A DNA stretch of 64,000 nt from an uncultured Pseudomonadales bacterium (GTDB lineage: Bacteria > Patescibacteriota > Microgenomatia > UBA1400 > PJMF01), in the NCBI GenBank assembly GCA_964449995.1, contig CAYVBW010000001.1:1618-65617 (forward strand), read 5' to 3'. The notes beneath the pieces were generated by a model. It did not search any database. It was not told where the DNA came from and saw only the letters and a program-made list of their open reading frames with translations. The translations under genes and the position numbers were made by a program. Each line of letters begins with the position of its first letter. The stretch's first letter is position 1. Below, in pieces: positions 20,876-53,393 of the stretch.

Positions 20876-23209
20876 TTACAACCTGGCCCTAAGTTGCATC
20901 TCTGCCTCTACTACCTCTCTGTCTTTACCATATTTTAACCTTGATAATTCTCTGATCATCTCAGCCATCTTTGGATTCATTAAAGCTTCAATTTTATCCA
21001 TATCTTTTTCTAATGAAACGCTAAAGGGTGTCATGGGCTCGTTGTCAACAATGGTCTTCATGTAAATATGATATTTTTCAACATTGGTGAGATCGGTTTC
21101 ACTAAAGATTGGAGCAAACTCGTGCTGTAGGAAGTTGGCATCTGTAACGCCAATTCTAAAAGAAACGATAGTGCCTACGTTCCCAAAAACAGCATTTTTA
21201 ACATCTTCGTCAATCTGTCCAATATACTGGTTGGCTACGATTAGATTAAGTTTATATTTTCTGGCCTCTGACAAAATAACTGCAAAATCTTCTGTAGCGT
21301 AATTTTGAAACTCGTCAACATATAAAAAGAAGTCGTCGCGCTTTTCCATTGGCACATCAGCCCTACTCATGGCAGCTGTGAGAATTTTGGGTACTAAAAT
21401 TAAGCCTAAAAATTTTGCATCTTCTTCTCCTAAAACACCTTTAGATAAATTACATAAGATAATCTTTTTTTCATCCATAGCCTTTCTAAAATCAAACGCA
21501 CTTTGAGTCTGCCCAATAATGTTTCTCATAGTTTTGTTGGTTACAAATCTGCCAAATTTTGACACAATGTAATCCAAAACCTCTGATTTATGAAAATCGC
21601 TGGTTTGGGCAATTTGATCAGTCCAATAACGCCTCACTATCGGATCTTTAATAAAGGGCAAGGTTTCTTTTACAAAATTTTCATCAGTTAAAATCCTAAC
21701 CACCTCAATAAAAGTAGAGTTTTCTCGACTCATAACAGAAAGCATGGCGTTTCGTATAGCATGTTCAAATCTTGGACCAATAATGCCAGTTCTATGTGGA
21801 TCATAAAGTTTGTACATCAAATTAATGATCGAACTCACCATAAAATGCTGTTGTTCTTCGCTGTAAGCCTCCATAATGTTTAAGCCCATCGGTCTTTCTC
21901 TGTCTGAAGGATTAAAATAAATCACATCTTCAGCTCTTTCAGGAGGCATTAACTCCAAAACATCCTCAACAAAATCTCCATGCGGATCAATGGCAGCTAC
22001 TCCTTTTCCCTCCTCGATATCCTGCAAAATCATTTGCTTGAGAAATTCTGATTTACCTGTCCCTGTTTTACCAACAATATACATATGACGCCGACGGTCG
22101 TTCAGTTTCATATGGACCTTTCTCTTTTCACCTCGATAGTGAGACTCTCCAATATATAAACCTTCACTAGGAATTTCATGAGGGGCAGGAGCATTTTTGG
22201 CCATCATCCATTTAATATGATGTGTTTCTACTGTTTTGTTGGGAAAATGAAAAATCGTTGCCAGCTCAGCAGTATTTAAAATACTGGTGCCTTTGTTAAA
22301 TAAAGGCATATATCGATATATGAAATCAATCATAAACAAATGCTTAAAAAAAATTTTAGCCTTTTTAAAAGAATTATAGGGAGAGGCAAACTGAGCAAAC
22401 GCACCCGTGATGTTACTTAAATGAGTATCCGTAGCCTGTTCTGTTGGTGCTGAAACTACCATTCTAATTGAAGTTCTAAAACCAGGTCTTGAGATTTCAT
22501 CACTGATTGCTTCCATTTCTTTGGGATCGTGTTTGTAGGTCGTCTCATCAGGATCTGCCTCCTGCTTTTTTTCCTTACTCATATAAGAACGTCCCTTTTT
22601 CTGCCATTTTTTAGAAGTGGGTTGAATTAAAATTTGTAAAACACCACCCTCTCCAGTGTGCATTTTAGATAAGGCTGAGGTTATTAAAGACAAGCCGTCT
22701 GTGGGCAAATCTTTATAAATTTGGATGGGATAATAGTCTGGACTGGCTGTTTTCATGGCAGCAAAAGCCACCTTTCCATCTTCGCTAAAGATGTTAACCT
22801 CATCTACTTCTTCAATCTTGGCTGAAGGATAAGCGCCATTAATCTGTTTTTCCACTACATCTTGAATTTTTTTAGAACAACTTACATAAAAGCCAATCTC
22901 TTCTTTTAAAGCAGCAATTTCAAATGCAATAATTGGCTGGCGTTTAGTAAAAGAAAACATGCCACCTTTGTGCAATGAGTACAAACCAGCAAACATTTGC
23001 TCTGCAGCATCAATTTTAATCTCATTGTCTTTAGGTAACCTCACCAGCAGAGTCACAAAGCTTAAGGCATAATCCTCTCTTTTGAAATGCTTAAACCACT
23101 GAAAAACCATATAGATAAAAACAACCAAAATACCAATAACAACTATGACAGCAAATATACCCGCAATCACTGACGCCAACTGGCCGAATATTTGATCAAA
23201 ATTATCCAT
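20876..23209 (-). CDS. VirD4/TraG-like type IV coupling protein-family ATPase (FtsK/HerA superfamily) with N-terminal TM anchor
   Basis: N-terminal TM (IAGIFAVIVVIGILVVFIYMVF), Walker A MYIVGKTGTGKSEF, Walker B FLYVDEFQNY, C-terminal TraG-D_C-like region; 777 aa. Confidence 0.6.
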   Translation of the reverse strand: MDNFDQIFGQLASVIAGIFAVIVVIGILVVFIYMVFQWFKHFKREDYALSFVTLLVRLPKDNEIKIDAAEQMFAGLYSLHKGGMFSFTKRQPIIAFEIAALKEEIGFYVSCSKKIQDVVEKQINGAYPSAKIEEVDEVNIFSEDGKVAFAAMKTASPDYYPIQIYKDLPTDGLSLITSALSKMHTGEGGVLQILIQPTSKKWQKKGRSYMSKEKKQEADPDETTYKHDPKEMEAISDEISRPGFRTSIRMVVSAPTEQATDTHLSNITGAFAQFASPYNSFKKAKIFFKHLFMIDFIYRYMPLFNKGTSILNTAELATIFHFPNKTVETHHIKWMMAKNAPAPHEIPSEGLYIGESHYRGEKRKVHMKLNDRRRHMYIVGKTGTGKSEFLKQMILQDIEEGKGVAAIDPHGDFVEDVLELMPPERAEDVIYFNPSDRERPMGLNIMEAYSEEQQHFMVSSIINLMYKLYDPHRTGIIGPRFEHAIRNAMLSVMSRENSTFIEVVRILTDENFVKETLPFIKDPIVRRYWTDQIAQTSDFHKSEVLDYIVSKFGRFVTNKTMRNIIGQTQSAFDFRKAMDEKKIILCNLSKGVLGEEDAKFLGLILVPKILTAAMSRADVPMEKRDDFFLYVDEFQNYATEDFAVILSEARKYKLNLIVANQYIGQIDEDVKNAVFGNVGTIVSFRIGVTDANFLQHEFAPIFSETDLTNVEKYHIYMKTIVDNEPMTPFSVSLEKDMDKIEALMNPKMAEMIRELSRLKYGKDREVVEAEMQLRARL

Positions 23210-28652: not shown

Positions 28653-30440
28653 CTAGCCAATTTTTATGCTTTCTAACTCTTTTACCGATGTGGCCTGTTC
28701 CCAATTTTTATCATCTCTAAACTTAACTAGTCTTGGGAAACGCAAAGCCCTGCCTGCACTATGTAGTGGAGAAACTGTTAACTCATCTGCAGCAATCTCT
28801 ACCACAATTTTAGGAGACACCCAGACATCTGGCTGCAAATCTTTAGGAACATCATACTGCAGAGGTTTTTTTGAAACTTGATATTTATCAGCCTCTTTTT
28901 TAATATACTTAAACTCTTCGTCTGTTAAACCAGTGCCAATTTTAGCAATAGTCTTTAGTTTTTTTTGAGAGGATAACACACCAACTAAAAAAGCCCCAAT
29001 CCCAAATTGACTGCGCTTGCCTTTACCGCGATAGTAACCCATCACCACACAATCCAGGGTATCGCTGAGCTTACCCAATGTCCCCTCACTCTCTTTAATC
29101 TTTACCCAACGCCAACCTTTACGACCAGAACGATACTTAGAATCAATTCTTTTTATAACAGCCCCCTCTAACCCCTTTTCAAGTTGTTGTTCATGATATT
29201 GTTGAATTTCGCCAGGATCTTGAGTTTCAACTACCTCTGTAAGCTTAATTATTCCATTAATCTCAACCACGTTTTGCAAAATTTTTTTTCGATTATTTAA
29301 AGGCTCATCTATTAGTGGCTCATTATTCAAATAAAGAATATCAAACACATAAAACATTAAAGGCACCTTTTCTGACTGACTAACAACTTGATGCTTACGT
29401 TTTCTAGTAATAGTTTCCTGAAAAGTTAGCAGTTTTTTAGATTTAGGATCATAGGCAATTGCCTCAGCATCTAAAATACAATTTTGAGCCTGGATTTGGT
29501 CAATCTCTTCTAAAATCTCAGGAAACATATGGGTAACATTGTCTAAATTTCGAGTAAAAATTTGAACAGGTTTTTCCTTATCAGCTTTATTAATGTGAAT
29601 TTGGACCCTAAGCCCATCATATTTTGGCTCTATTATCACTCTGCCCATTTTTTCTACTATTTCATGCGCAGTATTAAGGCGTTGACACAAAGCGGGCATG
29701 ACAGGAATTCCCAGCGCAACTTGATAATTATCAAAAAAATCTTTAACCTCTGTTTTTGAGCTACGTTGTAAATATTCCTGAGCCAGCTGTCCAATATCAG
29801 CTCTTTTCTGATAAGCCGCTTCAATCTTCTTGCTGTCGCTTTTATTCTGATGCCTAACCCAGGACAAAGCATCAATTATGGTCATTGTTGAAAAGCCCAA
29901 GCGCAGCTTACCCACAATTATTCTGACCACAAATTTAATTGAAGCTGGCTGTAAATTTAACAGCAATTCATAGGTCTTGTTAATTTTTCTATCCTGGGAA
30001 CCTTCTCCTTCCTCATCTGCTATGTCTACCAAAATTTTGTGAACTTCTAAAATGAGCAAGTCTTTACCTAACAATTGAGTATTTTCTAGCAATTGTTCTA
30101 TAGCTAATCCCAAATCTCCTAAATCCTTATTAGCTTTTTTTATTTTTTCCAAATAAAGAGAGTCGTCTTGTTCTTTAAACAAATTAATACTAGGTAAAGA
30201 ATCATCTTGATCCAAGTGATTAAGTAGTTTGGCCAACGCCCTCATGGTTAACTTCTCACTCATATTAAACTCTAAAGATTGATAGCTTGGCACTAACTTC
30301 CCCTGCATTAAGTAACAAACTACAGGAATTTCCTCAGTTTTGAGTTCCTGAAAAAGTTGTGCCAACTGCGCAGTCATTTCCAAACGGGAAGCGGTGACTT
30401 CTAGCTTTTCCAAGTATTGAGCGAAGGTTAAAAATTTCAT
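28653..30440 (-). CDS. ATP-dependent DNA ligase
   Basis: Adenylation motif I KYDGLRVQIH (KxDGxR), motif III/IV/V region EGAVIK, OB-fold C-terminus; 595 aa. Confidence 0.85.
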   Translation of the reverse strand: MKFLTFAQYLEKLEVTASRLEMTAQLAQLFQELKTEEIPVVCYLMQGKLVPSYQSLEFNMSEKLTMRALAKLLNHLDQDDSLPSINLFKEQDDSLYLEKIKKANKDLGDLGLAIEQLLENTQLLGKDLLILEVHKILVDIADEEGEGSQDRKINKTYELLLNLQPASIKFVVRIIVGKLRLGFSTMTIIDALSWVRHQNKSDSKKIEAAYQKRADIGQLAQEYLQRSSKTEVKDFFDNYQVALGIPVMPALCQRLNTAHEIVEKMGRVIIEPKYDGLRVQIHINKADKEKPVQIFTRNLDNVTHMFPEILEEIDQIQAQNCILDAEAIAYDPKSKKLLTFQETITRKRKHQVVSQSEKVPLMFYVFDILYLNNEPLIDEPLNNRKKILQNVVEINGIIKLTEVVETQDPGEIQQYHEQQLEKGLEGAVIKRIDSKYRSGRKGWRWVKIKESEGTLGKLSDTLDCVVMGYYRGKGKRSQFGIGAFLVGVLSSQKKLKTIAKIGTGLTDEEFKYIKKEADKYQVSKKPLQYDVPKDLQPDVWVSPKIVVEIAADELTVSPLHSAGRALRFPRLVKFRDDKNWEQATSVKELESIKIG

Positions 30441-30463
30441 AAATAATGTGTTAAATAAATTCG

Positions 30464-30605
30464 CAAATTAGTATTGGTAATAAATAAGAGCTCATTTCTA
30501 ATTTGCTTCACCCCGAGCGCACTTTGTCTTGTTCCGCTCCCTCGTCCCGCTTAGCGGGATGGCGAGAGGACGGGAGGACAGGCTGGCGTGGTATATAATC
30601 AGAAT
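30464..30605 (+). repeat. copy A of multi-hairpin intergenic repeat family (5' module AAATAAATTCGCAAATTAGTATTGGTAATAAATAAGAGCTCATTTCT ... 3' module GGTATATAATCAGAAT)
   Basis: Shares both terminal modules with copies at 32269-32492 and 48189-48295 (inverted); internal GC-rich hairpins (CCCGCTTAGCGGG). Confidence 0.7.
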
Positions 30606-30662
30606 TAACCAAATTTAAACCACACTATTTAGTATTCTAATATAAATTCTCCTGATAAAAAG

Positions 30663-31763
30663 CTATTTTTCAGCCAAACTGTAGGTTACACCCTTGGTAA
30701 CTCCATGTTTTTTAACCACACCTTTTTCTAACAAATCTTTCAAGTCTCGAAGAATGGTATCAATAGAAACATTAGGTAATAAGTCTTGGGCATCACTAGA
30801 AGTAATTTCTCCTTGATCCTGAAGTAATTCTAAAATAACGATTTGTCTTTCTGACAAAGCTACTTGACGGCCCAACTCTTTTTTCATTTTCAAATCCTTT
30901 GAAAGCTTGAGAACCTTTTCTTTCACCTTATCTACCTCAACTGCCAATCCATAACAAAAATACTCCAACCAATAAGTCATGTCAGCGTTTTCATTTTGCT
31001 GAACAGATTGGAGGGCACTGTAATAACTTTCAACCGCACTGTCAAAATACTCCTCCAAAGAAAAGAATCTCTTAAAATCATAGCCAGTGGCATAAAGAAC
31101 CAATGATGTCATAGCCCGTGCAGTACGTCCATTCCCTTCAATAAAAGGATGAATGTAAACCAACTGATAATGCGTGATAGCTGCTTTAAAAATCGAATGA
31201 ATCTTTTTTGACTCAGAATGGTTAAGCCATTTGAAAAAATCTTCAACTAAGTACGGTACCTCCACCGATACCGGCGGTCTAAATACCACTTTTCCAGCTG
31301 CCTCACCTGCACCCTTAACAATAACTTGCTTACGCCGATAGTAGCCAATTTGATCCTCAATTAAAAGTTTGTTCATGGTTAAGACATGGAGATGCTTGAG
31401 AGTTTTTTCTGAAAATAAATCTGAAACATTTTTTTGACCCTGTTCGTCAATCCATTTAATTACGTTGCGATAATTCAAAACCTCCTGCACATCTCTTTCT
31501 CGAGCAATAATGCCTGCTTTTTTAGCAGCCTCCTCTGGATCATCAATCAAATCAAGTCTAGCAACTCGCTGGGCTTGATCTTGGGTTAGGTCATTACCCT
31601 CTATTTTGGTCCCAAAATGTATGGTGCGAGCCATAGCATCTTTTTTAAACTTCGCCTCCCAAGCTGGCACCAAAGGCGAGTGGTCAATTAAAGCCTTAGC
31701 AGATTCAATAGAGCTCACATAGGTAAGTAAATTGGTAGTAATTTGAAAATTTGGCTTGAACAT
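30663..31763 (-). CDS. Fic/DOC-family protein (AMPylator-type) with C-terminal winged-helix domain
   Basis: Canonical Fic motif HPFIEGNGRTAR; C-terminal wHTH-like region. Confidence 0.85.
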   Translation of the reverse strand: MFKPNFQITTNLLTYVSSIESAKALIDHSPLVPAWEAKFKKDAMARTIHFGTKIEGNDLTQDQAQRVARLDLIDDPEEAAKKAGIIARERDVQEVLNYRNVIKWIDEQGQKNVSDLFSEKTLKHLHVLTMNKLLIEDQIGYYRRKQVIVKGAGEAAGKVVFRPPVSVEVPYLVEDFFKWLNHSESKKIHSIFKAAITHYQLVYIHPFIEGNGRTARAMTSLVLYATGYDFKRFFSLEEYFDSAVESYYSALQSVQQNENADMTYWLEYFCYGLAVEVDKVKEKVLKLSKDLKMKKELGRQVALSERQIVILELLQDQGEITSSDAQDLLPNVSIDTILRDLKDLLEKGVVKKHGVTKGVTYSLAEK

Positions 31764-31978
31764 AAAAAATTTGGGTTTCTATTTATGTATTTTAAGCGAT
31801 TTTTGCAAAATTTGCAGGATTAAATTTTATCTTAAATACTTCACGCTTGCCATTCATTGCTTCCCACGAGAATAATAAATTTAAAACTTTATAATTGAAA
31901 AAATATGCTCAATGTCAGCATGCGATATAATGCATATAGTCAAAAAGGTGTTAAGTAGCTAAAAATTAATAAATTAAA

Positions 31979-32275
31979 ATGTCAAAAATTAAAACTCCAG
32001 ATAAAATTGAGAATTTGCCTTTAGCCATTATCCAAAATATGATCGCTCTTGCCACTAGCGGTTTTGGCTTGGTGGTTGCTCTTGCCTGGAACGAATTAAT
32101 TAGAACAACGATCACAGAATATTTAACCCCCATTATTGGCACTGGCGGTGGAATTATTTCTCTTTTTATTTATGCTGTTGTTGTTACTGTTTTAGCAGTC
32201 CTAGTTACAATGCAGCTTTCTAAAATTGAAAAAAGAATAAAAAAAGCCAGTGAAGAAGAATTGGCTGCAAAATAA
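31979..32275 (+). CDS. small two-TM membrane protein, hypothetical
   Basis: Two hydrophobic helices; basic C-terminal tail. Confidence 0.45.
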   Translation: MSKIKTPDKIENLPLAIIQNMIALATSGFGLVVALAWNELIRTTITEYLTPIIGTGGGIISLFIYAVVVTVLAVLVTMQLSKIEKRIKKASEEELAAK

Positions 32276-32492
32276 ATTCGCAAATTAGTATTAGTAATAA
32301 ATATGAGCTCATTTCTGAGGGGTTACACCCCTCAGCATTTTGTCTTGCTTTGCAAGATCAAAGCCTGCTCCCCTGTCGCTTTAAGGGGTATTAGACCCTT
32401 AAAGCTCCACTAGGGGGAATCCCCCTAGAACCCCCATTCTGATTTGTTCCTCCTACTAAACGGAACAAGCTGTCGGGGTATATAATCAGAAT
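32269..32492 (+). repeat. copy B (longest) of multi-hairpin intergenic repeat family
   Basis: 5' module AAATAAATTCGCAAATTAGTATTAGTAATAAATATGAGCTCATTTCT, hairpins GAGGGGTTACACCCCTC, TCTTGCTTTGCAAGA, CTAGGGGGAATCCCCCTAG, GTTCC..GGAAC, 3' module GGTATATAATCAGAAT. Confidence 0.7.
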
Positions 32493-32527
32493 AAATAAAA
32501 AATTTCAACAATTAGTAGAACCCTGCC

Positions 32528-33457
32528 TTGAACAAAACTCAAATTCAGCATTATTTAACAGATCTCAATCTACCAAGTCCTGGGTCCCACAAAGGACAAA
32601 ATGGAAAACTGCTGATTATAGGTGGCTCCGAATTATTTCATGCTGCTAGTCGCTGGAGTTTAGATATTGCCTCTAAGCTCGTAGACATGATCTTTTATAC
32701 TTCGGTTCCCAGCAATAACCAGCTTATTCTAGAAGCAAAAAAAAATTTTTGGAATGGTATTGTGGTGGCAAGAGAAGATTTGGAGGACTATATTCATGAA
32801 GCTGATTGCATCTTAATTGGCCCAGGTATGATGCGCCATCAGTTAGACGCTAAGCCTGAAAATGATAACAGGGAATATTACTTAAACAATTCGCCAACAC
32901 TACAAGAATGGCAGGATAACACTCAGAAAATTGTTAACTATTTATTGTCCAAATATCCAAATAAAAAATGGGTTATAGATGCTGGAGCCTTGCAAATGAT
33001 GAATCCTAATTTACTTACCAATACATGCATCATAACCCCCCACCTTAAAGAGCTAAAAATTGTTATCAACAAACTTGGCCAAGAGCAAAGAGTTAAATTC
33101 AGCCAAAATGATCTTAACTCCATGAGTAGTTTAAGTTTATTAAACAAATTACTTAACAATGCCCTCATTTTGCTTAAAGGACAAGCAGATGTAATCACTC
33201 ATGGTCAAGAAACTTACGAAATTAAAGGCGGCAACGCTGGCATGACCAAAGGAGGAACGGGGGATGTTTTGGCTGGCTTGGTTGCGGGACTTTATACCAC
33301 CAACCAAATTTTGCCTAGCGCTATCGTAGCTAGCTATATTAATAAAATAGCGGGCGAAATTTTATATCAAAGCGTTGGTCCGTTTTACAATGCCTCAGAT
33401 TTACTAAACACTATTCCCAGAATGTTGTGGGAAGAACTAAAACAAGCTAATTCTTAA
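32528..33457 (+). CDS. ADP-dependent NAD(P)H-hydrate dehydratase (YjeF C-terminal / carbohydrate-kinase-like domain)
   Basis: HKGQNGKLLIIGGSELFHAASRW and GTGDVLAGLVAGL motifs. Confidence 0.7.
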   Translation: MNKTQIQHYLTDLNLPSPGSHKGQNGKLLIIGGSELFHAASRWSLDIASKLVDMIFYTSVPSNNQLILEAKKNFWNGIVVAREDLEDYIHEADCILIGPGMMRHQLDAKPENDNREYYLNNSPTLQEWQDNTQKIVNYLLSKYPNKKWVIDAGALQMMNPNLLTNTCIITPHLKELKIVINKLGQEQRVKFSQNDLNSMSSLSLLNKLLNNALILLKGQADVITHGQETYEIKGGNAGMTKGGTGDVLAGLVAGLYTTNQILPSAIVASYINKIAGEILYQSVGPFYNASDLLNTIPRMLWEELKQANS

Positions 33458-33477
33458 AAACTGCTTACTTTAACTAA

Positions 33478-34608
33478 CTAACTCTTTTGTAGCACTTCAG
33501 CCAACCTAATTACCTCAACTTGTCCAAGTTTTTGTTCAACCTCTTTTACCAAGTCTTGATTTACTGTCGTAATAATGATTTGCTCCCCATCAATTAAGTC
33601 CAATACTTTTTCTCTGTTGTCTTTGTCTAACTCAGAAAGAATATCATCTAAAATCAGGATTGGTAATTTATTTGTTTTGTGTTTTAAATAAACTAATTCT
33701 GCTTTTTTTAACCAAATGACGCCCATTCTTTTTTGTCCCCTAGAACCGTAGGCATCCAATGCTTTGTAGCTAGAAGCCCCATCTTCTCCAAGTTGCAAAT
33801 CCAACATAACCTCAAAATCATCTTTATGGGGACCTATCAGGGTAAATCCTGTTGCTATTTCAGCTGTCCTATGATCTTGAATTCTTTTTTTACTAATCAA
33901 TGAGGGTTTGTAATTAATTTTCATCGGCAGTGGCTGCTCAACCTGGGAATTGACAAATTTTATTAAACTTCTGCGCCTCTTTTGCAATCGCTCTCCGTGC
34001 TTTGTTAACGCCATATCCCAATAAGTTAGCACCTCTTGGTCCTGTTTGTTTTCCTTAATTAAAGACAAAAGTCTATTACGGCGCCTTAAAGCTTTATTGT
34101 ACTTATCCAAAGAGGTGCTGTATTCATAATCTGTTAACACTAACAAAGAATCTAAATAGTCCCGACGTCTACCTGGTGAACCCTCAATTAACCTCATGTC
34201 TTCAGGTCTAAAAACCACAGTTAACAACTGGCCCACAAATTTCTTTTTCTGCCTACGATTATCATTAACGCTAAACAGCAGTTTGCGCGTTCTTTTGCCA
34301 TTAACTTCTCCCCTAGTAATCAAGGCAGCCAAAACTAACTCATCAGCTATTTCTAAATTTTCTTTAAAAGAGGAAATATTATCATGAATTTTAGCCCTCA
34401 CTCTTCCCAAATCGCGATCGATTTGAATCATTTCTTCAATTTTGCCGGCTCTAAAACTCTGACCAATCGATAATAACCGAATTGCCTCCACAACCGAACT
34501 TTTTCCCATAGCATTTGGGGCAATCAAGACAGTTGTCTGTCGCTTAAATTCCAACAATAATTCTGAGAATAAACGAAAGTTCTTTAATTGTAGCTTGCTA
34601 ATAAGCAT
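33478..34608 (-). CDS. recF: DNA replication and repair protein RecF
   Basis: N-terminal LKNFRLF + Walker A APNAMGKSS, SMC-like signature and Walker B ILILDD; located in origin-proximal neighbourhood. Confidence 0.85.
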   Translation of the reverse strand: MLISKLQLKNFRLFSELLLEFKRQTTVLIAPNAMGKSSVVEAIRLLSIGQSFRAGKIEEMIQIDRDLGRVRAKIHDNISSFKENLEIADELVLAALITRGEVNGKRTRKLLFSVNDNRRQKKKFVGQLLTVVFRPEDMRLIEGSPGRRRDYLDSLLVLTDYEYSTSLDKYNKALRRRNRLLSLIKENKQDQEVLTYWDMALTKHGERLQKRRRSLIKFVNSQVEQPLPMKINYKPSLISKKRIQDHRTAEIATGFTLIGPHKDDFEVMLDLQLGEDGASSYKALDAYGSRGQKRMGVIWLKKAELVYLKHKTNKLPILILDDILSELDKDNREKVLDLIDGEQIIITTVNQDLVKEVEQKLGQVEVIRLAEVLQKS

Positions 34609-34627
34609 TTATGGATTTAAAAAATAT

Positions 34628-34978
34628 TTAATAGTTATTGCCAGAGCTTAAAGAGAGCCTAAATCTAAATAGTAAATAAAGCAATAAAATCTGCCAATAA
34701 ACAACAAAAATTACCAACCAGGTTGTAAAAAAGGAATAAAGAGCAAATACCAATGGAGTTTGTGGCAAAGTTAATACAGAAAGAAAAAAAGTGATCAAAG
34801 GGAAGAGAACAGCTTTAGACAAAACAATCAACAGCCCCAAAAAAATTACTGGCATCAAAGCGATCCAAATAAAAGTTTTTTGTACAACTAATATTTGCAT
34901 TGTTTGGTAGGGGTGAAGTAGTAAACCTAAAGAAAATCTAAACAAAGCATAAATATAAGACAAAATAAAGTTTTTCAT
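34628..34978 (-). CDS. hypothetical membrane protein (DUF721-position small protein after recF?)
   Basis: Hydrophobic ORF; function not determinable. Confidence 0.35.
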   Translation of the reverse strand: MKNFILSYIYALFRFSLGLLLHPYQTMQILVVQKTFIWIALMPVIFLGLLIVLSKAVLFPLITFFLSVLTLPQTPLVFALYSFFTTWLVIFVVYWQILLLYLLFRFRLSLSSGNNY

Positions 34979-34988
34979 AATTTTTTAA

Positions 34989-35237
34989 CTAAAGATATTT
35001 CAATACAAACTCAACAAACAGTGAGGTAATTAGTGAAAAAAATAGTAAAGTTTGCCAAGGATAGTAGATAATTAAGTCAATAAATTTTTCTAAATTTTTG
35101 GGTAAAGAAGAAATTTGTTCTAGATATGCCTGAGTTGCTGCTTGCTGCTGAAGCTTATCTAAAAGTTGAGATTTTTTTATTAGATCAGCATTAATAGTGG
35201 CATCGCCATGTTTTTCTAAAGAAGCTGGTTGTTTCAT
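34989..35237 (-). CDS. hypothetical small protein
   Basis: ORF only. Confidence 0.3.
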   Translation of the reverse strand: MKQPASLEKHGDATINADLIKKSQLLDKLQQQAATQAYLEQISSLPKNLEKFIDLIIYYPWQTLLFFSLITSLFVEFVLKYL

Positions 35238-35465
35238 TAATAAACTCGTTAGTAGAATTAAGGTAGTTATTATTGATAGTTAACTCGTTTCTAAGGGGCC
35301 ATCGCCCCTCAGCGTTTTGTCTTGCTTTGCAAGAACAAAGCCTGCTCCCCTGTGACTTGAAAAAAATGATATTCAAGTCACACCAGGGGTAATCCCCCTT
35401 GAAACCCCCATTTTGATTAATCACTCGCAGCAAGCTACGAGGTTAATCAAAATAACTCTCCAGAA
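35238..35465 (+). repeat. copy D of multi-hairpin repeat family (degenerate 5' module, divergent 3' end)
   Basis: AGGGGCCATCGCCCCTCAGCGTTTTGTCTTGCTTTGCAAGAACAAAGCCTGCTCCCCTGT is nearly identical to the core of copy B; subsequent hairpins differ in sequence but keep pairing. Confidence 0.6.
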
Positions 35466-35529
35466 ATAATTATATCTCAAGAAGGCTGAGAATGCGAACT
35501 TTGAATTTGTTTAAAACAGGCCAAGTCCA

Positions 35530-36066
35530 CTAGTCAATAGTGGCATAAATTTCTTTAAAACTTTCCCTGGCACGATAGAGATCTGACTCAACTGATTTAA
35601 AAGTTTTACCCATAATTCTTGCGATCTGCCTCACCCCCATGCCATCCACATACTTCATCAACAATAAACTCTTTCTTCTATCCAACATCTTGTTGAGTGC
35701 TTGTTTGACTTTAAGTTCCACCTCGCTACTCTCTTGAATTTTTTCGCTGAGCAGGGACTTGCCCAACGGTAAAATCTGAATCGCTTTTTTAGCATATTTT
35801 TTACGATAATAATCAGCAATTTCATGACGTAAAACAGCCATCATCCAAGTCTTTAAGCTGGAATCGCAACGAAAAACATGAATTTTCTTTAAACAATTGA
35901 TCATGGTTTCTTGGACCACATCTTCAACGTCGCGAAAACTACCAATTTTATTTTGAGCTAAAGAGAAAAGTTGAGGATAATAATGATCAAACCAATATTT
36001 AACAGCTTGAGGATCACCGTTTTTTAATCGCTGCACCAATCTTTTTTCAGAAATTTCTTTTTGCAT
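35530..36066 (-). CDS. ECF-type sigma-70 family RNA polymerase sigma factor
   Basis: Region 2 (DVVQETMINCLKK) and region 4 HTH (GMGVRQIARIMGKTFKSVESDLYRARESF). Confidence 0.8.
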   Translation of the reverse strand: MQKEISEKRLVQRLKNGDPQAVKYWFDHYYPQLFSLAQNKIGSFRDVEDVVQETMINCLKKIHVFRCDSSLKTWMMAVLRHEIADYYRKKYAKKAIQILPLGKSLLSEKIQESSEVELKVKQALNKMLDRRKSLLLMKYVDGMGVRQIARIMGKTFKSVESDLYRARESFKEIYATID

Positions 36067-36310
36067 TTTTTTCGAGTAAATATTTGATCAAATTTGCGCT
36101 CAACACAGCTTTATTTTTGAATTGCAGAAACTGTATTTAATCACAACCTATTACTTTTATAAAGAAAGCTATTTTTATAAAGATAGCTAAAAATGCTCCT
36201 AAAAGCCTAACTTCAAACCGATCTCGCTCTTTTAAAACCTACATCACACACATTACAAAAGCCTAGCAGACCACCCTTTTATCAAGACTAATTTAATAAT
36301 TAAACAGAAT

Positions 36311-36697
36311 ATGTTATTATTATCAATAATTATGAGACCTTTTCTTCATTCTATTGTTAATAACCAGCTTATTTCACAGCAAAACCAAAATGAAGCAACG
36401 CCCATTAAACTCACTGATTACCTCACTCTCAGGGGAGGAGAATCAATTGCGGATGTATACGATCAACCGGCAAAAATTGTTAATTTAATTGTTAGCAATT
36501 TGTTTGTTGTAGCTGGAATTATTATCTTTTTTTTAATTATTGGAGCTGGATTTAGTTTTATTAAAGGCTCAAGCCAAGGTAAAGAAGAGGCGAAAAATCT
36601 TTTAACTGGAGCTGTTATCGGTTTTTTAATTATGTTTTCTGCCTACTGGATCATTCAAATTATTAAATTTGTGACTGGTGCAGATATACCAATTTAA
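36311..36697 (+). CDS. pilin-like two-TM protein, paralog 1 (divergent, lacks full loop motif)
   Basis: TM1-loop-TM2 architecture: ...AGIIIFFLIIGAGFSFIKGSSQGKEEAKNLLTGAVIGFLIM...; first of 7 co-oriented paralogs. Confidence 0.5.
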   Translation: MLLLSIIMRPFLHSIVNNQLISQQNQNEATPIKLTDYLTLRGGESIADVYDQPAKIVNLIVSNLFVVAGIIIFFLIIGAGFSFIKGSSQGKEEAKNLLTGAVIGFLIMFSAYWIIQIIKFVTGADIPI

Positions 36698-36748
36698 GTA
36701 AAATTAAATAATCCTGCCATGATAAATGAAGTTGGCAAATAATTTATA

Positions 36749-37333
36749 ATGAAAAAAATACCTCTTTTTTTTAAAAAAATCACACAAAACTATTCAAAGC
36801 TTTTCCTAATAGTTTTTGCACTACTATTATTTTTTTCCTCTAAGTTGTTGGTAAATGACACATTTGCTTCTGGTAATAATTGTCACTGTGTATGTGATGC
36901 GAGAGGGCGTGATTGTTCTTGGATGGGCCCAGATTGCGGATACTACCAAGGTCGTCTTTGTGAGGCGGGTGATGTGTTTGGAGAGAGTATTTTTGGCACA
37001 ATTCAGCCCCCTGCAGGAGTAAGAGAAATTCAAGAAGAAGTGGGGGCTGGAAACATTGGCATTATTTTATTTGCATCAAACCTAGTAAGACTAGTAACTG
37101 TGGCTGCAGGCATTTGGGTTATGTTTAATTTTATCTCAGCCGGGTGGATTTATATCACATCAGGCGGAGATGCCTCAGCTCACGAAAAAGTATCTGAGAA
37201 AATAACCCAGAGTCTTATAGGCTTAGCCATAGTGGCACTAGCTTATACTATTGCCGGACTTATCGGTCTTTTGATTTTTGGAGATGCCAGCTTTATTCTT
37301 AGGCCCACCTTAACCGGGGTTGGCCAATTTTAA
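36749..37333 (+). CDS. pilin-like two-TM protein, paralog 2 (signal peptide + Cys-rich N-terminal ectodomain)
   Basis: Signal peptide; CHCVCDARGRDCSWMGPDCGYYQGRLCE; core WIYITSGGDASAHEKVSEKITQSLIGLAIVALAY. Confidence 0.55.
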   Translation: MKKIPLFFKKITQNYSKLFLIVFALLLFFSSKLLVNDTFASGNNCHCVCDARGRDCSWMGPDCGYYQGRLCEAGDVFGESIFGTIQPPAGVREIQEEVGAGNIGIILFASNLVRLVTVAAGIWVMFNFISAGWIYITSGGDASAHEKVSEKITQSLIGLAIVALAYTIAGLIGLLIFGDASFILRPTLTGVGQF

Positions 37334-37344
37334 ATTAACAACTT

Positions 37345-37743
37345 ATGAATATATTTTTAAAAATTCTTAATTATTCAGTGTCATTTTCTAGTCAATTTGG
37401 TAATGGATTTCAGCCACCCACAGATGTCTATACCCAAGGCGCTGACGACAGTGGGGAGGTGGTAAATATCTTGACTAATTTTCTTTCTAATTTAATTGGT
37501 CTTCTAACAATCTTTGGGGCTCTGTTTTTCATTGTTAACTTTTTCTTAGGAGCCCTTGCTTGGATTTCAGCTGGTGATGACTCGGGTAAAGTGGAAAAAG
37601 CGAGAACAAAAATAATGCATGGAGTGTTGGGGCTGATTATAATCGTCCTTGCTTATTCAATTATCGGACTTATTGGACAAATTATTGGCATTGACTTAAT
37701 TAATTTAGGAGAAACAATAGAGCAGGTTGTACCAACTTTATAA
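37345..37743 (+). CDS. pilin-like two-TM protein, paralog 3
   Basis: Core LAWISAGDDSGKVEKARTKIMHGVLGLIIIVLAY. Confidence 0.55.
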   Translation: MNIFLKILNYSVSFSSQFGNGFQPPTDVYTQGADDSGEVVNILTNFLSNLIGLLTIFGALFFIVNFFLGALAWISAGDDSGKVEKARTKIMHGVLGLIIIVLAYSIIGLIGQIIGIDLINLGETIEQVVPTL

Positions 37744-37781
37744 AAATGTAAAATTTAAATAATGCTTAATAATATACAAAT

Positions 37782-38216
37782 ATGACACAACACTTTTCTA
37801 TTTTAAATAAATTAATTACCAAACCAATCCAAGCAAGCAATGGCAGGCTTTTTAATCCCGTTATTGGAAGGTTAGGAGATGACCCTGACGCAGCCAGCAC
37901 AGGTAATTTGTTTTTAACTTATGCTATTCATCTGTGGAGAATAGCAATTAATATCGGAGCCTTAATAGTTTTGGCTTTTTACATAGTTGCCGCCTATGAG
38001 TGGCTAACCAGCGGCAGCGACACTCAAGGAGTTGAAAAAGCGCGCAAAAGATTTGTGAACGCCACCATTGGTTTGATTTTATTGGTGGGGTCTTTTGCCA
38101 TCATAGCCTTTATCAGCAATTTATTGTTTGGTGAAGACTTTAATTTACTACACTTAACCTTCCCAGTTGGCCAAAGCACAGCGCCAACAACACCAATTCA
38201 TAATACTGGGATATAA
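37782..38216 (+). CDS. pilin-like two-TM protein, paralog 4
   Basis: Core YEWLTSGSDTQGVEKARKRFVNATIGLILLVGSF. Confidence 0.55.
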   Translation: MTQHFSILNKLITKPIQASNGRLFNPVIGRLGDDPDAASTGNLFLTYAIHLWRIAINIGALIVLAFYIVAAYEWLTSGSDTQGVEKARKRFVNATIGLILLVGSFAIIAFISNLLFGEDFNLLHLTFPVGQSTAPTTPIHNTGI

Positions 38217-38260
38217 CTAAAAAATCAGCTTAATTTTTTCAAAAAAAAGAAAAAAATAAC

Positions 38261-38635
38261 ATGACAAGCAAAACCACAAACTCATTAGCCTCAATTGAGT
38301 TTGATATCGGTCAAGAAGGCAGAGAACAACTCCCTTTTGGTGAAACTGTGGTCACAGAAGGTGGTGGAGCCAGCGCTGTTTCCAGCTTCATCAGCAACTT
38401 ATTAAGAATAAGCATTGTTGTTGCTGCCCTCATTCTTCTCTTTAATTTAATTTTTGCCGGTTTTGAATGGCTTTCTTCTGGAGGAGATAGCAGTAAAATT
38501 GAAAAAGCGCGCACCAGAATGACTCAGTCAATTATTGGCTTTGTAATACTATTTGCCGTAATTGCTATCTTTACTTTCATCCAAGATTTACTTGGGATAA
38601 ACGTTATTACCTTTACCACTGAAGGTGGTGGTTAA
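38261..38635 (+). CDS. pilin-like two-TM protein, paralog 5
   Basis: Core FEWLSSGGDSSKIEKARTRMTQSIIGFVILFAVI. Confidence 0.55.
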   Translation: MTSKTTNSLASIEFDIGQEGREQLPFGETVVTEGGGASAVSSFISNLLRISIVVAALILLFNLIFAGFEWLSSGGDSSKIEKARTRMTQSIIGFVILFAVIAIFTFIQDLLGINVITFTTEGGG

Positions 38636-38807
38636 CCCATTCCGCCTCCAGAGGGTGGGGGTGGAGGAGAAGTAAGACCTCCAGTATATAAATTTTAAAT
38701 AAATTTAAAATAGAAATTAAAAGCCCTATTTTGACATTTATTTTAAAAACCTGATACAATATCAACAACAATTATCAATAATCATCAAATTAATTAAAGG
38801 AGAAAAA

Positions 38808-39209
38808 ATGAATAAAATTAAACAAATTGCTATAGGAGCCGGATCAGCCATTAGCGGAGCGTTGCTGACCGTCAATCCAGTTTTGGCTCAAGAAACCGAA
38901 GTTAAGGTTGAAGTACCCGATGCCTTTGATATAAGTGTGGGCGATCTTTTAACAACTCTTTTGAATTTAGTTTTAGTCATAGCTGCAATTTTGGTTTTTG
39001 CCTACTTGATTTGGGGTGGAATTGAGTGGATTACCTCTGGTGGTGATAAGAGCAAAACAGAGTCAGCCAGAAATAAAATCACAGCTGCCATTGTAGGGCT
39101 GGTGGTTTTGGTTGCCTCCTATGCCATCTTGCAATTAGTCTTGCAAATCCTTGGGATTCAAGGTGGGTTTGAGGGTATGCTTAACTTTGCTACCATAGGT
39201 GCAAAATAA
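38808..39209 (+). CDS. pilin-like two-TM protein, paralog 6 (clear Sec signal peptide ...VLAQE)
   Basis: Strong RBS-like AAAGGAGAAAAA upstream; core IEWITSGGDKSKTESARNKITAAIVGLVVLVASY. Confidence 0.6.
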   Translation: MNKIKQIAIGAGSAISGALLTVNPVLAQETEVKVEVPDAFDISVGDLLTTLLNLVLVIAAILVFAYLIWGGIEWITSGGDKSKTESARNKITAAIVGLVVLVASYAILQLVLQILGIQGGFEGMLNFATIGAK

Positions 39210-39233
39210 TGTCCTTTTAAATAAGCACACAAC

Positions 39234-39266
39234 AAAAAAAACCCTCTGTTAAAGAGGGTTTTTTAA
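39234..39266 (+). terminator. rho-independent terminator after pilin paralog 6
   Basis: AAAAAAACCCTCTGTTAAAGAGGGTTTTTT: 7-bp GC-containing stem, 5-nt loop, T-run. Confidence 0.7.
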
Positions 39267-39354
39267 TAAATTACAGCCGACTTTCCCATTTTTGCTTAAA
39301 AAATAATATAATAAGTCATTAATAAATAATTTGATACATCAGCACTCCTAATTT

Positions 39355-39807
39355 ATGAAAAAAATCATTAAATTTATTAAAATCTTTTGTTTTTTTGCTA
39401 TTATTTTTTTTGTCAGCACCAACAAAACCTTTGCCCAAACCAGAGTTTGGGAAAGTATTAATCAACATTGTGTTGTTGATGGCGTTGCCACTATCCAGGG
39501 TGTATCTTGCTTGATTGCTAATGTTTTATCAGTTGCTCTCACAGTCATTGGTCTGGCTGGATTCATCATGCTAATAGTTGGCTCCTTAAAATGGCTCTTG
39601 TCAGGAGGCAGCTCTCAAAATGTAGACAGCGCTAAAAAAACCATGACTTATGCCGTGGTTGGACTGGTAGTAGCGCTTAGCTCATTTATGATAATCAATC
39701 TAATTGCTCAGTTTACTGGAGTCAATGTTATTACTGAGTTCTTTATTCCTGGAAGCGATACCGGTCTTGAGGGAGGTCCACAATGGGAAGATGTGGGTCG
39801 ACTGTAG
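39355..39807 (+). CDS. pilin-like two-TM protein, paralog 7 (signal peptide, two Cys in ectodomain)
   Basis: Signal peptide ...TFAQT; core LKWLLSGGSSQNVDSAKKTMTYAVVGLVVALSSF. Confidence 0.55.
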   Translation: MKKIIKFIKIFCFFAIIFFVSTNKTFAQTRVWESINQHCVVDGVATIQGVSCLIANVLSVALTVIGLAGFIMLIVGSLKWLLSGGSSQNVDSAKKTMTYAVVGLVVALSSFMIINLIAQFTGVNVITEFFIPGSDTGLEGGPQWEDVGRL

Positions 39808-42281: not shown

Positions 42282-43388
42282 CTAGCCAACTACATGAACT
42301 ACAGCTGTAGCTCCAGATCCTCCCACGTTATGGGCCAAGCCTAATTTATAACGCTCATCCTCAATTTGCTGAGCTAAATAAACAACCTGTTTGATGCCGG
42401 TAGCACCGATTGGATGACCAAATGCTTTTAAACCACCTGATAAGTTAATCACAACTTTTCCATTCAATTTTGTTTCGTGGTTGAGCGTAGCCCGACCACC
42501 CATTCCTTTGTCAAAAAAACCCAAGTCCTCGATCGCCAAAATCTCTGCAATAGTAAAACAATCGTGAACCTCTGCCAACTGTATTTGATCTGGCCTAACA
42601 TCAGCCATCTGATAAGACTTTTGTGCTGCTTGCACCGTTGCTCTCAAGGTAGTTAAATCTTTTCTACTAGCTAAGTCCAAAGCATCTTGAGCATGACCAA
42701 AACCTAAAATTTTGGGCTTATTTTTCATCTTGCGGCCTGTTAGTATCACAGCTGAAGCCCCGTCTGAAATTGGCGAGCAATCTAGCAATCTAAGAGGATC
42801 TGCCACTAAAGGACTTTGTGAGACTTGATCTAAAGTAAATTCTCGATGAAATTGAGCCAAAGGGTTCTCCAAGGCATGTGTGTGATTTTTTACAGCTACA
42901 GCAGACAGCATTTCCCTAGATGTTTTAAACTTTTCTGTATGCACTTGGGCCAGTAAGGCATACAAGCCAGGGAAAGTTGAGCCATTTTCAGCATCATGAT
43001 TAGCTGCCATAGCAAGAATTCGGGTGGCATTGCTCGCAGTTGTATCTGTCATCTTTTCGGCCCCAACTACCAAAGCAGTTTGACAATACCCTGACAAAAT
43101 CGCCTGTTCTGCAGCCAATAAAGCCAACCCCCCAGAAGCGCAAGCTCCCTCCACTCTCATGCTGGGAGGAAAATGATTAAAAAACTGACTTACCAAAGCA
43201 TTGAGATGAAGTTGATTGTTAAATTCTCCAGGGGCTTTGCTGGCAACAAAAACTTGGTCTATTTGTCTAGAATCAATACCAGCATTTTTAACAGAACCCC
43301 CAATTGCTTCTTGAAACAAATCAGCCAACCCTTTTTCCCAGAGTTCTCCGACCTTAGTTGTATGATGACCCGCAATAGTAATTTGCAT
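42282..43388 (-). CDS. acetyl-CoA C-acetyltransferase (archaeal-type thiolase)
   Basis: Thiolase fold with active-site Cys region VEGACASGGLALL, C-terminal GHPIGATG and NVGGSGA motifs. Confidence 0.8.
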   Translation of the reverse strand: MQITIAGHHTTKVGELWEKGLADLFQEAIGGSVKNAGIDSRQIDQVFVASKAPGEFNNQLHLNALVSQFFNHFPPSMRVEGACASGGLALLAAEQAILSGYCQTALVVGAEKMTDTTASNATRILAMAANHDAENGSTFPGLYALLAQVHTEKFKTSREMLSAVAVKNHTHALENPLAQFHREFTLDQVSQSPLVADPLRLLDCSPISDGASAVILTGRKMKNKPKILGFGHAQDALDLASRKDLTTLRATVQAAQKSYQMADVRPDQIQLAEVHDCFTIAEILAIEDLGFFDKGMGGRATLNHETKLNGKVVINLSGGLKAFGHPIGATGIKQVVYLAQQIEDERYKLGLAHNVGGSGATAVVHVVG

Positions 43389-43413
43389 TGTATTTAACCT
43401 AGCTAAAAACTAA

Positions 43414-44484: not shown

Positions 44485-44544
44485 AATCTTTTAATTTTTA
44501 TTTAATGTATATTTTTTAATAATTTGCTAAAAATTTCCCCAAGC

Positions 44545-53370: not shown

Positions 53371-53393
53371 GACAAAACTTAAGTCTTTAGCCT

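Follow-up and report, generated by a model that had tools for sequence, protein, structure and literature searches.

An Element Repeated in Intergenic Spacers

The window, by which we mean the whole 64,000-nt stretch of DNA analyzed here, contains 5 copies of a non-coding, hairpin-rich element of about 100 to 240 nt, of which forms of 103, 121, 149, and 219 to 240 nt were identified. All of the copies were intergenic and abutted gene ends, as a preliminary description of the sequence had stated. The boundaries of the copies, here called A to E, were refined from the empty sites described below and are listed together with one site that lacks a copy in the window.

30457..30605, plus strand: copy A, 149-nt short form, in the spacer from the stop codon of Fic to the start codon of DNA ligase, antisense with respect to both
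32274..32492, plus strand: copy B, full-length (219 nt), between the genes for DUF5654 and NAD(P)HX dehydratase, sense
35242..35453, plus strand: copy C, diverged full-length member, in the spacer from the stop codon of the sigma factor to the start of an 82-aa gene, antisense
36067..36100, no strand: site without a copy in the window, where a sister species has its own short copy by the sigma-factor start codon
48189..48291, minus strand: copy D, 103-nt short form (5' module, P1, apical P5, 3' module), located after the ValRS stop codon and before the following gene, the ATG of which is at 48297, antisense with respect to both
~53290-53372, plus strand: copy E, decayed 3' fragment in which only P4 and P5 are left, in the spacer from the stop codon of RNase H to the start codon of DUF4012

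A profile HMM built from the full copies and run over the whole window recovered all 5 previously claimed copies, at 30454-30608, 32271-32495, 35268-35455, 48294-48186 (minus strand), and 53296-53372, with E-values as low as 1e-79, and matched nothing else. The outcome of a covariance model search of the window was identical. The end motifs were far more frequent than expected by chance: the 32-nt 5' motif occurred 3 times against 0.00 expected (3 mismatches allowed) and the 16-nt 3' motif 3 times against 0.23 expected (2 mismatches allowed), in both cases in copies A, B, and D. The sequence TTAGTATT near rpsA (8100 and 8123), which had been described as a recurrence of the core, was missed by both models and belongs to a different local repeat, GGTATTTAGTATT, present twice.

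The left junction of copy B is spanned by the DUF5654 stop codon TAA. Copy C was about 59% identical to the main copies, with the order of the hairpins unchanged. It was also noted that copy C stands between a Shine-Dalgarno-like GGAGAG and the start codon of the 82-aa gene. The flanking genes of the copies were housekeeping genes, and the presence of a transposase next to the copies was rejected.

Architecture of the Element

Copy B was used to define the modules of the element.

32274..32314, plus strand: 5' module, AT-rich (22% GC), unpaired, the best conserved part of the element
32315..32335, plus strand: P1 hairpin, CTGAGGGG-TTACA-CCCCTCAG, then CATTTTGTCTT
32338..32363, plus strand: P2 hairpin, TTTTGTCTTGC-TTT-GCAAGAtCAAAG, almost invariant between copies
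32378..32405, plus strand: P3 hairpin, GCTTTAAGGG/CCCTTAAAGC
32410..32428, plus strand: P4 hairpin, CTAGGGGG-AAT-CCCCCTAG, resembling P1 in sequence
32436..32492, plus strand: P5, outer stem ATTCTGATT paired with the 3'-terminal AATCAGAAT, variable apex

The 5' module of copy B holds 2 tandem TTAGTA units and the palindrome ATGAGCTCAT, while the 3' module, GGTATATAATCAGAAT, includes a TATAAT hexamer located 7 nt from the 3' end. Both modules were kept across the 103-, 121-, 149-, and 219- to 240-nt forms, and the interior was variable. The chain of GC-rich hairpins inferred previously is real: copy B had a folding energy of -75.5 kcal/mol (z = -5.7 relative to shuffles), and the GC content was 48% in its interior, as compared to 22% in the 5' module and 37% in the window. 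Copy A consists of the 5' module, a disrupted P1, an internal deletion that joins the 5' arm of P2 to the inner P5, a long apical P5 hairpin, and the 3' module.

An inverted-repeat search of copy B identified internal hairpins only and no terminal inverted repeats; the pairing partner of the last 9 nt at the 3' end is 32436-32444 and not the 5' end. A conserved small ORF starting from an ATG in the 5' module was rejected, since the frame is broken by indels between copies.

Conservation of Pairing

The hairpin sequences had been described as differing between copies while the pairing is preserved. This was found to hold mainly for copy C and for copies L012, L001, and L007, whereas the main copies were mostly identical in sequence. 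In the alignment of the copies, which had been fitted to the model structure, 93% of the cells were paired and 10 pairs had changed on both sides, as compared to 1.8 +/- 1.2 in shuffles (0/500) and 0 to 2 in slid controls. Changes on both sides were observed in 5 of the 10 pairs in P3, the maximum among the helices, and compensated changes in the outer stem of P5 were identified in L001 and copy C. Furthermore, a single locus represented by 2 strains (L001 and L040) contained one compensating change that had occurred in situ. Five hairpins are conserved.

Template-switch mutation can yield seemingly compensatory changes in DNA palindromes without selection. All of the helices are local hairpins, and either strand could adopt them equally well as DNA or as RNA. 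The wobble pairs were about equally common on both strands and indicated no preference for the strand of a putative RNA. A structured RNA, which the preliminary description had put forward beside a mobile element, would be compatible with the conserved pairing, but the helices are equally possible as DNA.

Filled and Empty Sites in Related Genomes

The window was compared with a syntenic sister species, in which the gene order was the same and the protein sequences were 83% to 87% identical. The element was absent from sites A, B, C, and D in the sister species, as was most of copy E. The spacers in sister contig L023 were 72, 45, and 79 nt, as compared to 222, 252, and 292 nt in the window for copies A, B, and C, respectively. 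Site A was empty and read TAAAT^TAACC, and in the empty site C the sequence CAATAAACTC directly adjoined TCCAG. In contig L025, site D was an empty 16-nt spacer with the sequence TAAAT^TAATT, and most of copy E was missing, the boundaries of which were fuzzy in the sister species. Similarly, the site of the L001 copy was a 30-nt spacer in L039. The reverse case was also observed, in that the sister species carried a copy beside the sigma gene where the window has none. Discrete gain or loss has thus occurred at orthologous sites. In 3 syntenic relatives with about 72% ValRS identity, no copy was identified in 66 kb. The empty sites in the sister species, its own copy, and the lack of copies in the 3 relatives argue for a mobile element that is non-autonomous, specific to this lineage, and active in recent times.

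The earlier placement of 2 copies on either side of the Fic gene and its small membrane-protein neighbor had implied a link between them. The flanking of Fic and DUF5654 by copies A and B is incidental, and a Fic/DUF5654 cassette that includes the elements was ruled out, since both genes are in place in the sister species, which has neither element.

Dispersal and Short Forms

Metagenome contigs from the same population contained copies in at least 10 further unrelated contexts beside housekeeping genes, including those for DnaE, UvrC, RecQ, TsaD, a glycosyltransferase, and radical-SAM proteins, which amounts to at least 15 sites in all. The density was 6 copies in 84 kb of the source genome (about 1 spacer per 14 kb). 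The flanks were unrelated from copy to copy, and contigs ended inside copy B at assembly breaks. Relative to the genes, 9 copies were antisense and 3 were sense, a bias that was not significant.

The deletion junction in copy A, TCTTG joined to TYCC, was shared with L007 at an unrelated locus. Because short forms that have the same deletion junction are present at loci unrelated to each other, the interior is mostly dispensable for movement. The dispensable interior comprises the 3' arm of P2, P3, P4, and the 5' arm of the outer P5 stem, and the deletion derivative that lacks these parts has itself moved.

Decay fragments were represented by copies E and L032, which were truncated at the 5' end, and by L002, which was truncated at the 3' end. 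A SINE-like retroelement, suggested by the 5' truncations, was rejected, since L002 is truncated at the other end and no reverse transcriptase was seen; an RVT_3 match was to an RNase H. A match in "Micrarchaeota" was traced to a mis-binned bacterial contig and was discarded as a sign of cross-domain spread.

Junctions and Target Sites

At sites A and D, the junctions read exactly flank-AAT[AAATTC...CAGAAT]WAA-flank, which defines the inserted unit as AAATTC...CAGAAT and the target as AAT^WAA. The left flanks ended with AAT in 14 of 14 cases (WAAT or GAAT), and 11 of the 13 right flanks started with WAA. A search for target-site duplications had been suggested; the 2 junctions share the 3 nt AAT and nothing longer, and since this motif is invariant among the copies, it possibly belongs to the element itself; a 3-bp duplication and an insertion after AAT fit equally well.

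The hypothesis that insertions generally occur near lookalikes of the element ends was rejected by comparison with 265 non-coding AATWAA control sites (Mann-Whitney p = 0.07 and 0.25). Only 4 of 26 flanks were outliers beyond the 99th percentile of the controls, namely the right flanks of L001 and L005 and the left flanks of L003 and L009. The L001 target already read AAATGTAGCAAAT before the insertion and the element starts with AAATTCGCAAAT; an apparent 15-nt duplication at this site was dismissed, as it mostly consists of flank that was present beforehand. The 3' end was GAAT with an internal ATTC in most copies, and AAAT with an internal ATTT in copy C and L007, which represent 2 events only. 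The boundary motif and its internal complement pair within an ordinary Watson-Crick stem of 9 bp.

Searches for Known Families and Partner Enzymes

No match was obtained in Rfam 15 at the gathering threshold, nor any relevant match at E <= 10; in the window, only rRNA and tRNA passed the threshold, and the best sub-threshold score in 30300-35700 was 20 bits as compared to a threshold of 58.6 bits. The 2 outcomes that the preliminary description had named against itself do not apply, in that Rfam gave no hit and additional copies occur without their flanking genes. Copy B had no BLAST match in plasmids and phages, and six 17-mer matches in viral contigs were regarded as chance, since none was confirmed by the HMM. 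A literature search on MITEs and intergenic repeats in CPR/Patescibacteria returned nothing relevant, and in these collections the element showed no sequence similarity to any known family.

Pfam scans and the precomputed annotation revealed no transposase or recombinase gene in the window, in an extension of about 40 kb, or at other annotated loci of the genome. Likewise, no Y1 (HUH) transposase, no TnpB, and no long element or full-length IS with matching ends was identified in the window and the other annotated DNA of the source genome examined.

Nature of the Element and Possible Mechanisms of Movement

We consider it likely that the element is a small, non-coding, non-autonomous mobile DNA that has recently spread in the intergenic spacers of one Microgenomates-like CPR lineage. 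The earlier suggestion of a MITE-like element stands with regard to mobility, as seen from the presence/absence at orthologous sites and the dispersal, and the element is, like a MITE, small (103 to 240 nt), non-coding, multi-copy, and associated with empty orthologous sites. It is not a strict MITE, because terminal inverted repeats are absent. Genomic parasites of this kind are familiar, and the element adds a new family to them; it does not constitute a new type of RNA gene.

The element would be moved in trans by an enzyme whose gene is located elsewhere in the genome. Our leading guess, which is tentative, is a Y1 transposase of the IS200/IS605 type acting by single-strand "peel-and-paste" on a PATE-like element. 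The IS200/IS605 family and the PATEs are characterized by a target motif (TAM), a transposon-end motif (TEM), guide covariation, stem-loop ends, and no duplication (PMC10055086). The WAAT of the left flank would here be the target motif, GAAT or AAAT at the 3' boundary the transposon-end motif, and the internal ATTC(TG) located 5' of a hairpin the DNA guide. The unlike ends, which would need no duplication, are consistent with this, and so is the apparent covariation of the boundary motif with its internal complement (GAAT/ATTC, with AAAT/ATTT in copy C and L007). However, the source-genome DNA examined, including the window, contained no such transposase, the right end is a stem-loop but the left hairpin P1 lies about 41 nt from the boundary, and the candidate left guide in copy C (GTTT) mismatches its flank (TAAT). 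Recognition of hairpins also leaves the strong conservation of the unpaired 5' module unexplained. Furthermore, the GC-skew minimum at 56-60 kb, beside dnaA, places the copies on the left replichore, so that 5 of the 6 copies, a small sample, would be on the leading-strand template if the strand presented here is the active one. The bias of IS608-type elements is the opposite, with the active strand on the lagging-strand template. We note that the lagging-strand expectation fits if the reverse strand is active, and that selection on orientation may be a confounding factor.

It is less probable that a DDE transposase acts on 2 unlike ends with a 3-bp staggered cut, in which case AAT would be a true target-site duplication. 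Each intact copy has an AAT on either side, the empty sites A and D have a single AAT, the targets follow the preference AAT^WAA, and the conserved AT-rich 5' module with its tandem TTAGTA resembles a binding site for a protein on double-stranded DNA. On the other hand, DDE elements nearly always have terminal inverted repeats, which are wholly absent here, an invariant 3-nt "duplication" is indistinguishable from a boundary motif carried by the element, and no transposase was found in the window or other source-genome DNA examined.

Movement through a circular intermediate and a site-specific recombinase (tyrosine, serine, or IS110-type), with the crossover in a shared AAT core, is improbable. 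The AAT core would be shared by the 3'-5' junction of the element and by targets that resemble this junction, and the junction in a circle or tandem would read ATAATCAGAAT joined to AAATTCGC or to AAATTCGCAAATTAG. The unlike ends and the lack of terminal inverted repeats agree with such a process, as does the resemblance of 4 of the 26 flanks to the neighboring element end, including the pre-insertion target of L001, but this similarity is not general, as seen from the comparison with the control sites. Moreover, the target information of about 6 nt is well under that of known att or bridge-RNA targets, and neither a recombinase nor the junction sequence was seen in the DNA examined.

It is similarly improbable that the copies are primarily host RNA genes or cis-regulatory modules, such as a small RNA, an mRNA stabilizer, or a terminator-promoter cassette, with mobility being secondary. 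Double changes have left the pairing of 5 hairpins intact, among them P3, a hairpin that movement does not require, one compensating change arose in situ in strains L001 and L040, P1 with its T-run fits the terminator scan, and TATAAT is located near the 3' end. Against this, there is no Rfam match, the copies occur in both orientations relative to the genes and decay into fragments (E, L032, and L002) and internal-deletion forms, and close relatives with the same genes manage without them. Neither end module contained a sigma-70-like promoter at the scan threshold, the wobble pairs showed no strand preference, and the type of P1 was independent of orientation.

Effects on the host would be side effects. 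In the sense orientation, P1 with the T-run, CTGAGGGGTTACACCCCTCAG CATTTTGTCT, a predicted terminator listed by the scan for the sense strand of copy B only, could terminate transcription of the upstream gene; the stem is weaker in the variant P1 of the GAGCGCG type. In the antisense orientation, which is the more common, read-through would be expected, with no terminator-like site evident on the reverse strand of copy B.

A highly speculative reading is that the element is a gene-less carrier of a functional structured nucleic acid, such as a guide-type RNA (similar to an omega RNA or a bridge RNA) or an ssDNA fold, that directs its own insertion beside end-like sequences. We retain it because the unpaired 5' module is conserved, as is P3 although it is dispensable for movement, because the 3' end has an internal complement, and because 4 target sites are junction-like; if true, this would be an undescribed TIR-less mobile class thriving in streamlined CPR genomes. 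Finally, chance similarity or segmental duplication of gene ends, for which only the AT-rich context speaks, is already refuted by motif counts far above those in shuffles, HMM E-values to 1e-79, and unrelated flanks.

Comparison with Known Systems

CPR (Patescibacteria) genomes are small and dense, and are usually called poor in mobile DNA. As a result of the insertions observed here, gaps of 16 to 80 nt immediately before start codons have often grown beyond 200 nt. In practical terms, the repeat breaks metagenome assemblies of the source organism and supplies strain-level markers, and the natural set of filled and empty sites offers clean material for the study of a TIR-less insertion mechanism.

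The attC sites of integrons have R''/R' core sites (RYYYAAC...GTTRRRY) in a single imperfect palindrome and move with the adjacent ORF. An integron attC site or gene cassette was rejected, given the ends AAATTC...CAGAAT, the five-hairpin interior, and the finding that Fic and DUF5654 stay put in the sister species.

REP/BIME, ERIC, Correia, and SPRITE sequences are single hairpins or units bounded by inverted repeats, and show presence/absence among strains, as here, and orientation-dependent terminator-like behavior, as predicted here. The element described here is instead an ordered chain of 5 distinct hairpins behind a 41-nt unpaired module, although it shares with these families the GC-rich hairpins in intergenic spacers (background in PMC3049150).

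The BOX elements of Streptococcus, boxA-boxB(n)-boxC, have conserved terminal modules and a variable, dispensable interior, and are intergenic and folded (PMC3049150). The present element is similar in its conserved end modules, variable interior, intergenic location, and extensive predicted folding, and an effect on co-transcribed genes is expected for both (PMC3049150). However, the ends of BOX are IS-like inverted repeats, whereas the ends here are unlike each other, and the BOX interior varies by the copy number of tandem modules and not, as here, by deletion and a variable apex. The host phylum is also unrelated; the distinction from BOX is based on the ends.

Like the omega RNAs of TnpB/IscB and the bridge RNAs of IS110, the element is 150 to 250 nt, contains several stems, is positioned at transposon ends, and has an internal segment complementary to its own end, which is a resemblance only. 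It differs in lacking an Rfam match and an associated gene for a nuclease or recombinase, and its target information is insufficient for a programmable guide.

The PATEs (palindrome-associated transposable elements), which are gene-less derivatives of IS200/IS605, differ from the element in several respects. A conserved unpaired module here separates the left hairpin from the end by about 41 nt, the boundary-guide stem consists of 9 Watson-Crick bp where the PATE contact is 4 to 5 nt and non-canonical, the strand bias appears reversed, and no Y1 transposase or TnpB was found. Yet, both are small, non-coding, and present in many copies, with unlike ends and no inverted repeats. In both cases, a short AT-rich flank motif is matched by a near-identical motif at the opposite boundary. 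Further similarities may be an insertion that requires no duplication, stem-loops located near the ends, and a boundary motif that covaries with an internal complement located 5' of a hairpin (PMC10055086). If the partner is an IS200/IS605 transposase, the copies would be candidate gene-less carriers of guide RNAs in a phylum that has been little studied for such systems.

Copies and fold of the element

With a GC content of 37% the window is AT-rich, and its best named homologues point to a Microgenomates/Pacebacteria-like CPR bacterium as the source. A profile HMM trained on full copies gave exactly five matches, and a covariance model concurred, which confirmed all five copies of the preliminary description.

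HMM matches in the window
30454-30608, plus strand, copy A, short form
32271-32495, plus strand, copy B, full-length
35268-35455, plus strand, copy C, diverged full-length
48294-48186, minus strand, copy D, short form
53296-53372, plus strand, copy E, 3' fragment

Three occurrences of the 32-nt 5' motif were counted in the window, compared with 0.00 expected from shuffles, and three of the 16-nt 3' motif, compared with 0.23. Identity among the main full copies was 78% to 96%, and that of copy C to the main copies was about 59%. The Rfam scan proposed in the preliminary description matched no family, either at the gathering score or at E <= 10.

Anatomy of the full form (219 to 240 nt)
5' module: 41 nt, AT-rich, unpaired; AAATTCGCAAAT TAGTA TTAGTA ATAGAT ATGAGCTCAT TTCT
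Hairpin P1: CTGAGGGG...CCCCTCAG, then a T-run
Hairpin P2: GTCTTGC-TTT-GCAAGA plus an extension
Hairpin P3: GCTTTAAGGG...CCCTTAAAGC
Hairpin P4: CTAGGGGG-AAT-CCCCCTAG, P1-like
Hairpin P5: long; outer stem of internal ATTCTGATT paired with 3'-terminal AATCAGAAT; apex variable among copies in both sequence and length

Terminal inverted repeats were sought in the element and none were found. The fold of copy B had an energy of -75.5 kcal/mol (z = -5.7 relative to shuffles). In a model-guided alignment of ten copies, which is biased towards the model, 93% of cells were paired and 10 two-sided pair changes were counted, 5 of them in P3 alone, compared with 1.8 +/- 1.2 in shuffles (0 of 500) and 0 to 2 with slid partners. 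Every helix is a local hairpin that could be formed by DNA or by RNA of either strand, and the wobble pairs favoured no strand.

Filled and empty sites

The decisive result for mobility is the comparison with a sister species (contigs L023, L025, and L039), which has the gene order of the window and identities of 83% for NnrD, 87% for ValRS, and 95% for DnaE.

Spacers at orthologous sites
Site A: 72 nt in the sister species, 222 nt in the window
Site B: 45 nt in the sister species, 252 nt in the window
Site C: 79 nt in the sister species, 292 nt in the window
Site D: 16 nt in the sister species, copy in the window
Site E: most of E absent in the sister species, fragment in the window
L001 site (outside the window): 30 nt in the sister species, copy in the filled allele

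The sister species contained a short copy of its own, adjoining the start codon of a sigma-factor gene and covered by two contig ends, at a site that is empty in the window. Copy A and the copy in locus L007, at unrelated loci, share the internal deletion junction TCTTG|TYCC, so the form lacking the 3' arm of P2, P3, P4, and the 5' arm of outer P5 has itself moved. As a general statement, the element is very probably a non-autonomous mobile element.

No copy was found in 66 kb from three syntenic relatives (about 72% ValRS identity). The spacers of L029, a relative at about 72%, were much longer (e.g. the ligase gene is 826 nt away from Fic), and its 22 kb contained neither a copy nor an obvious repeat family of its own.

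An exact-pattern scan retrieved a single contig from GTDB and eleven loci from metagenomes, representing about nine further contexts with neighbors that included DnaE/transketolase, UvrC, RecQ, TsaD/Sua5-TsaE, a 5'-3' exonuclease, glycosyltransferases, and AMMECR1/radical-SAM. One more fragment, between murJ and rpsT, was found in the 10-kb extensions at the two ends of the window, for a total of six copies in 84 kb. It was also noted that many contigs of the window strain, L017, L019, L020, and L022 among them, break off inside copy B; the element fragments short-read assemblies of this genome. The GTDB record L001 (JAHKLX010000100.1) is named 'Candidatus Micrarchaeota archaeon'. This contig is mis-binned: it encodes bacterial DnaE, GatA, GatB, and transketolase, and over the element and the directly adjoining flanks it is identical to the metagenome contig L004, which belongs to the Ga0334890 series and the sample set of the window bacterium.

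Orthologous copies in L001 (6724-6952) and L040 (10914-11136), from two strains with 99% identical DnaE, differed by about 7%, compared with 1% to 2% in the flanks. Among the differences are a block swap of several bases in P1, which suggests gene conversion between dispersed copies, and one change that restores a P5 pair in one of the two strains.

Insertion junctions

The empty sites of the sister species read TAAAT^TAACC at A and TAAAT^TAATT at D (^, insertion point), and the filled sites ...TAAAT[AAATTC...CAGAAT]TAA.... The AAT common to both junctions is the sole ambiguity at these sites; it could have arisen by duplication of 3 bp, or it could belong to the element as a boundary motif, the latter implying insertion after WAAT (W, A or T) without duplication. 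Left flanks ended in AAT in 14 of 14 cases, and 11 of 13 right flanks started with WAA.

A by-eye impression that flanks generally mimic the element ends was rejected against 265 non-coding AATWAA sites (p = 0.07 and 0.25), with 4 of 26 flanks beyond the 99th percentile of these controls. The 15-nt repeat flanking the copy in L001 was likewise rejected as a duplication; it is largely older flank, since AAATGTAGCAAAT stands at this site in the sister species and in the second strain.

Genomic context

Nine copies were antisense to the neighboring genes, three were sense, and one lay between convergent genes; the antisense excess was not significant. The 5' module of antisense copies stops 4 to 40 nt upstream of the next start codon, and the insertion of copy C parts GGAGAG from its ATG. 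P1 with its T-run fits a terminator pattern in the sense orientation only, which could have caused the antisense excess, but P1 variants were not correlated with orientation. The cumulative GC skew reached its minimum at 56000-60000, a likely replication origin, beside the minus-strand genes dnaN (56053-57171) and dnaA (57515-59047). This places the element strand of the preliminary description on the leading-strand template in five of six copies.

Other features of the window
1403-6538: DUF2341/LamG-domain protein of 1711 aa; repeats of about 60 nt recur within it at spacings of 0.6-1.5 kb
8045-8145: G-rich tract GGGAGGGGAAAGACAGGCAGGGGGGCTGTGGTGGGAG, then local repeat GGTATTTAGTATT twice, in the spacer that separates rpsA (8231-9766, minus strand) from a small ORF downstream
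36311-39807, 20876-23209, and 59279-63801: array of small T4SS-pilin-like paralogues (PF18895, as identified in syntenic relatives), VirB4/TraG-like ATPases, and TraC-like and PrgI-like genes
42282-45852: thiolase, HMG-CoA synthase, and HMG-CoA reductase (mevalonate pathway), adjoining ValRS; assigned by synteny with annotated relatives

The TTAGTATT near rpsA, previously taken for the core of the element, belongs to a separate local repeat that is unrelated to it. Taken together, the T4SS-related genes make up an apparatus of type-IV-secretion or competence-like character that is divided among three locations.

Mechanism and classification

No transposase or recombinase gene was found, either in the window or in such further annotated DNA of this genome as was examined. 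The best resemblance is to IS200/IS605-type chemistry, and we tentatively suggest that the element could be a gene-less derivative similar to PATEs, as defined in PMC10055086. The points of resemblance are unlike ends, no inverted repeats, optional duplication, a near-identical short motif at one flank and the opposite boundary, and an apparent covariation of this boundary motif with its complement inside the element, on the 5' side of a hairpin (mostly GAAT with ATTC, but AAAT with ATTT in L007 and copy C). However, the strand bias is in the wrong direction, 41 nt separate P1 from the boundary, the conservation of the unpaired 5' module is left unaccounted for, and no Y1 transposase was found. 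A DDE enzyme, which would make the 3-bp duplication as which the shared AAT could be read, is a less probable agent, and a site-specific recombinase is improbable.

The preliminary description had proposed a structured RNA or a MITE-like element, an interpretation that is supported in part: the empty orthologous sites bear out the mobility, a strict MITE is ruled out by the lack of inverted repeats, and a role as an RNA is possible. No sequence relatives were found in Rfam, plasmids, or phages, and our literature search yielded no earlier description of elements of this type from CPR bacteria. The element represents a new, lineage-specific family that has been active recently and is unusually well structured, and it behaves like the BOX, REP/BIME, ERIC, Correia, and PATE elements (PMC3049150).
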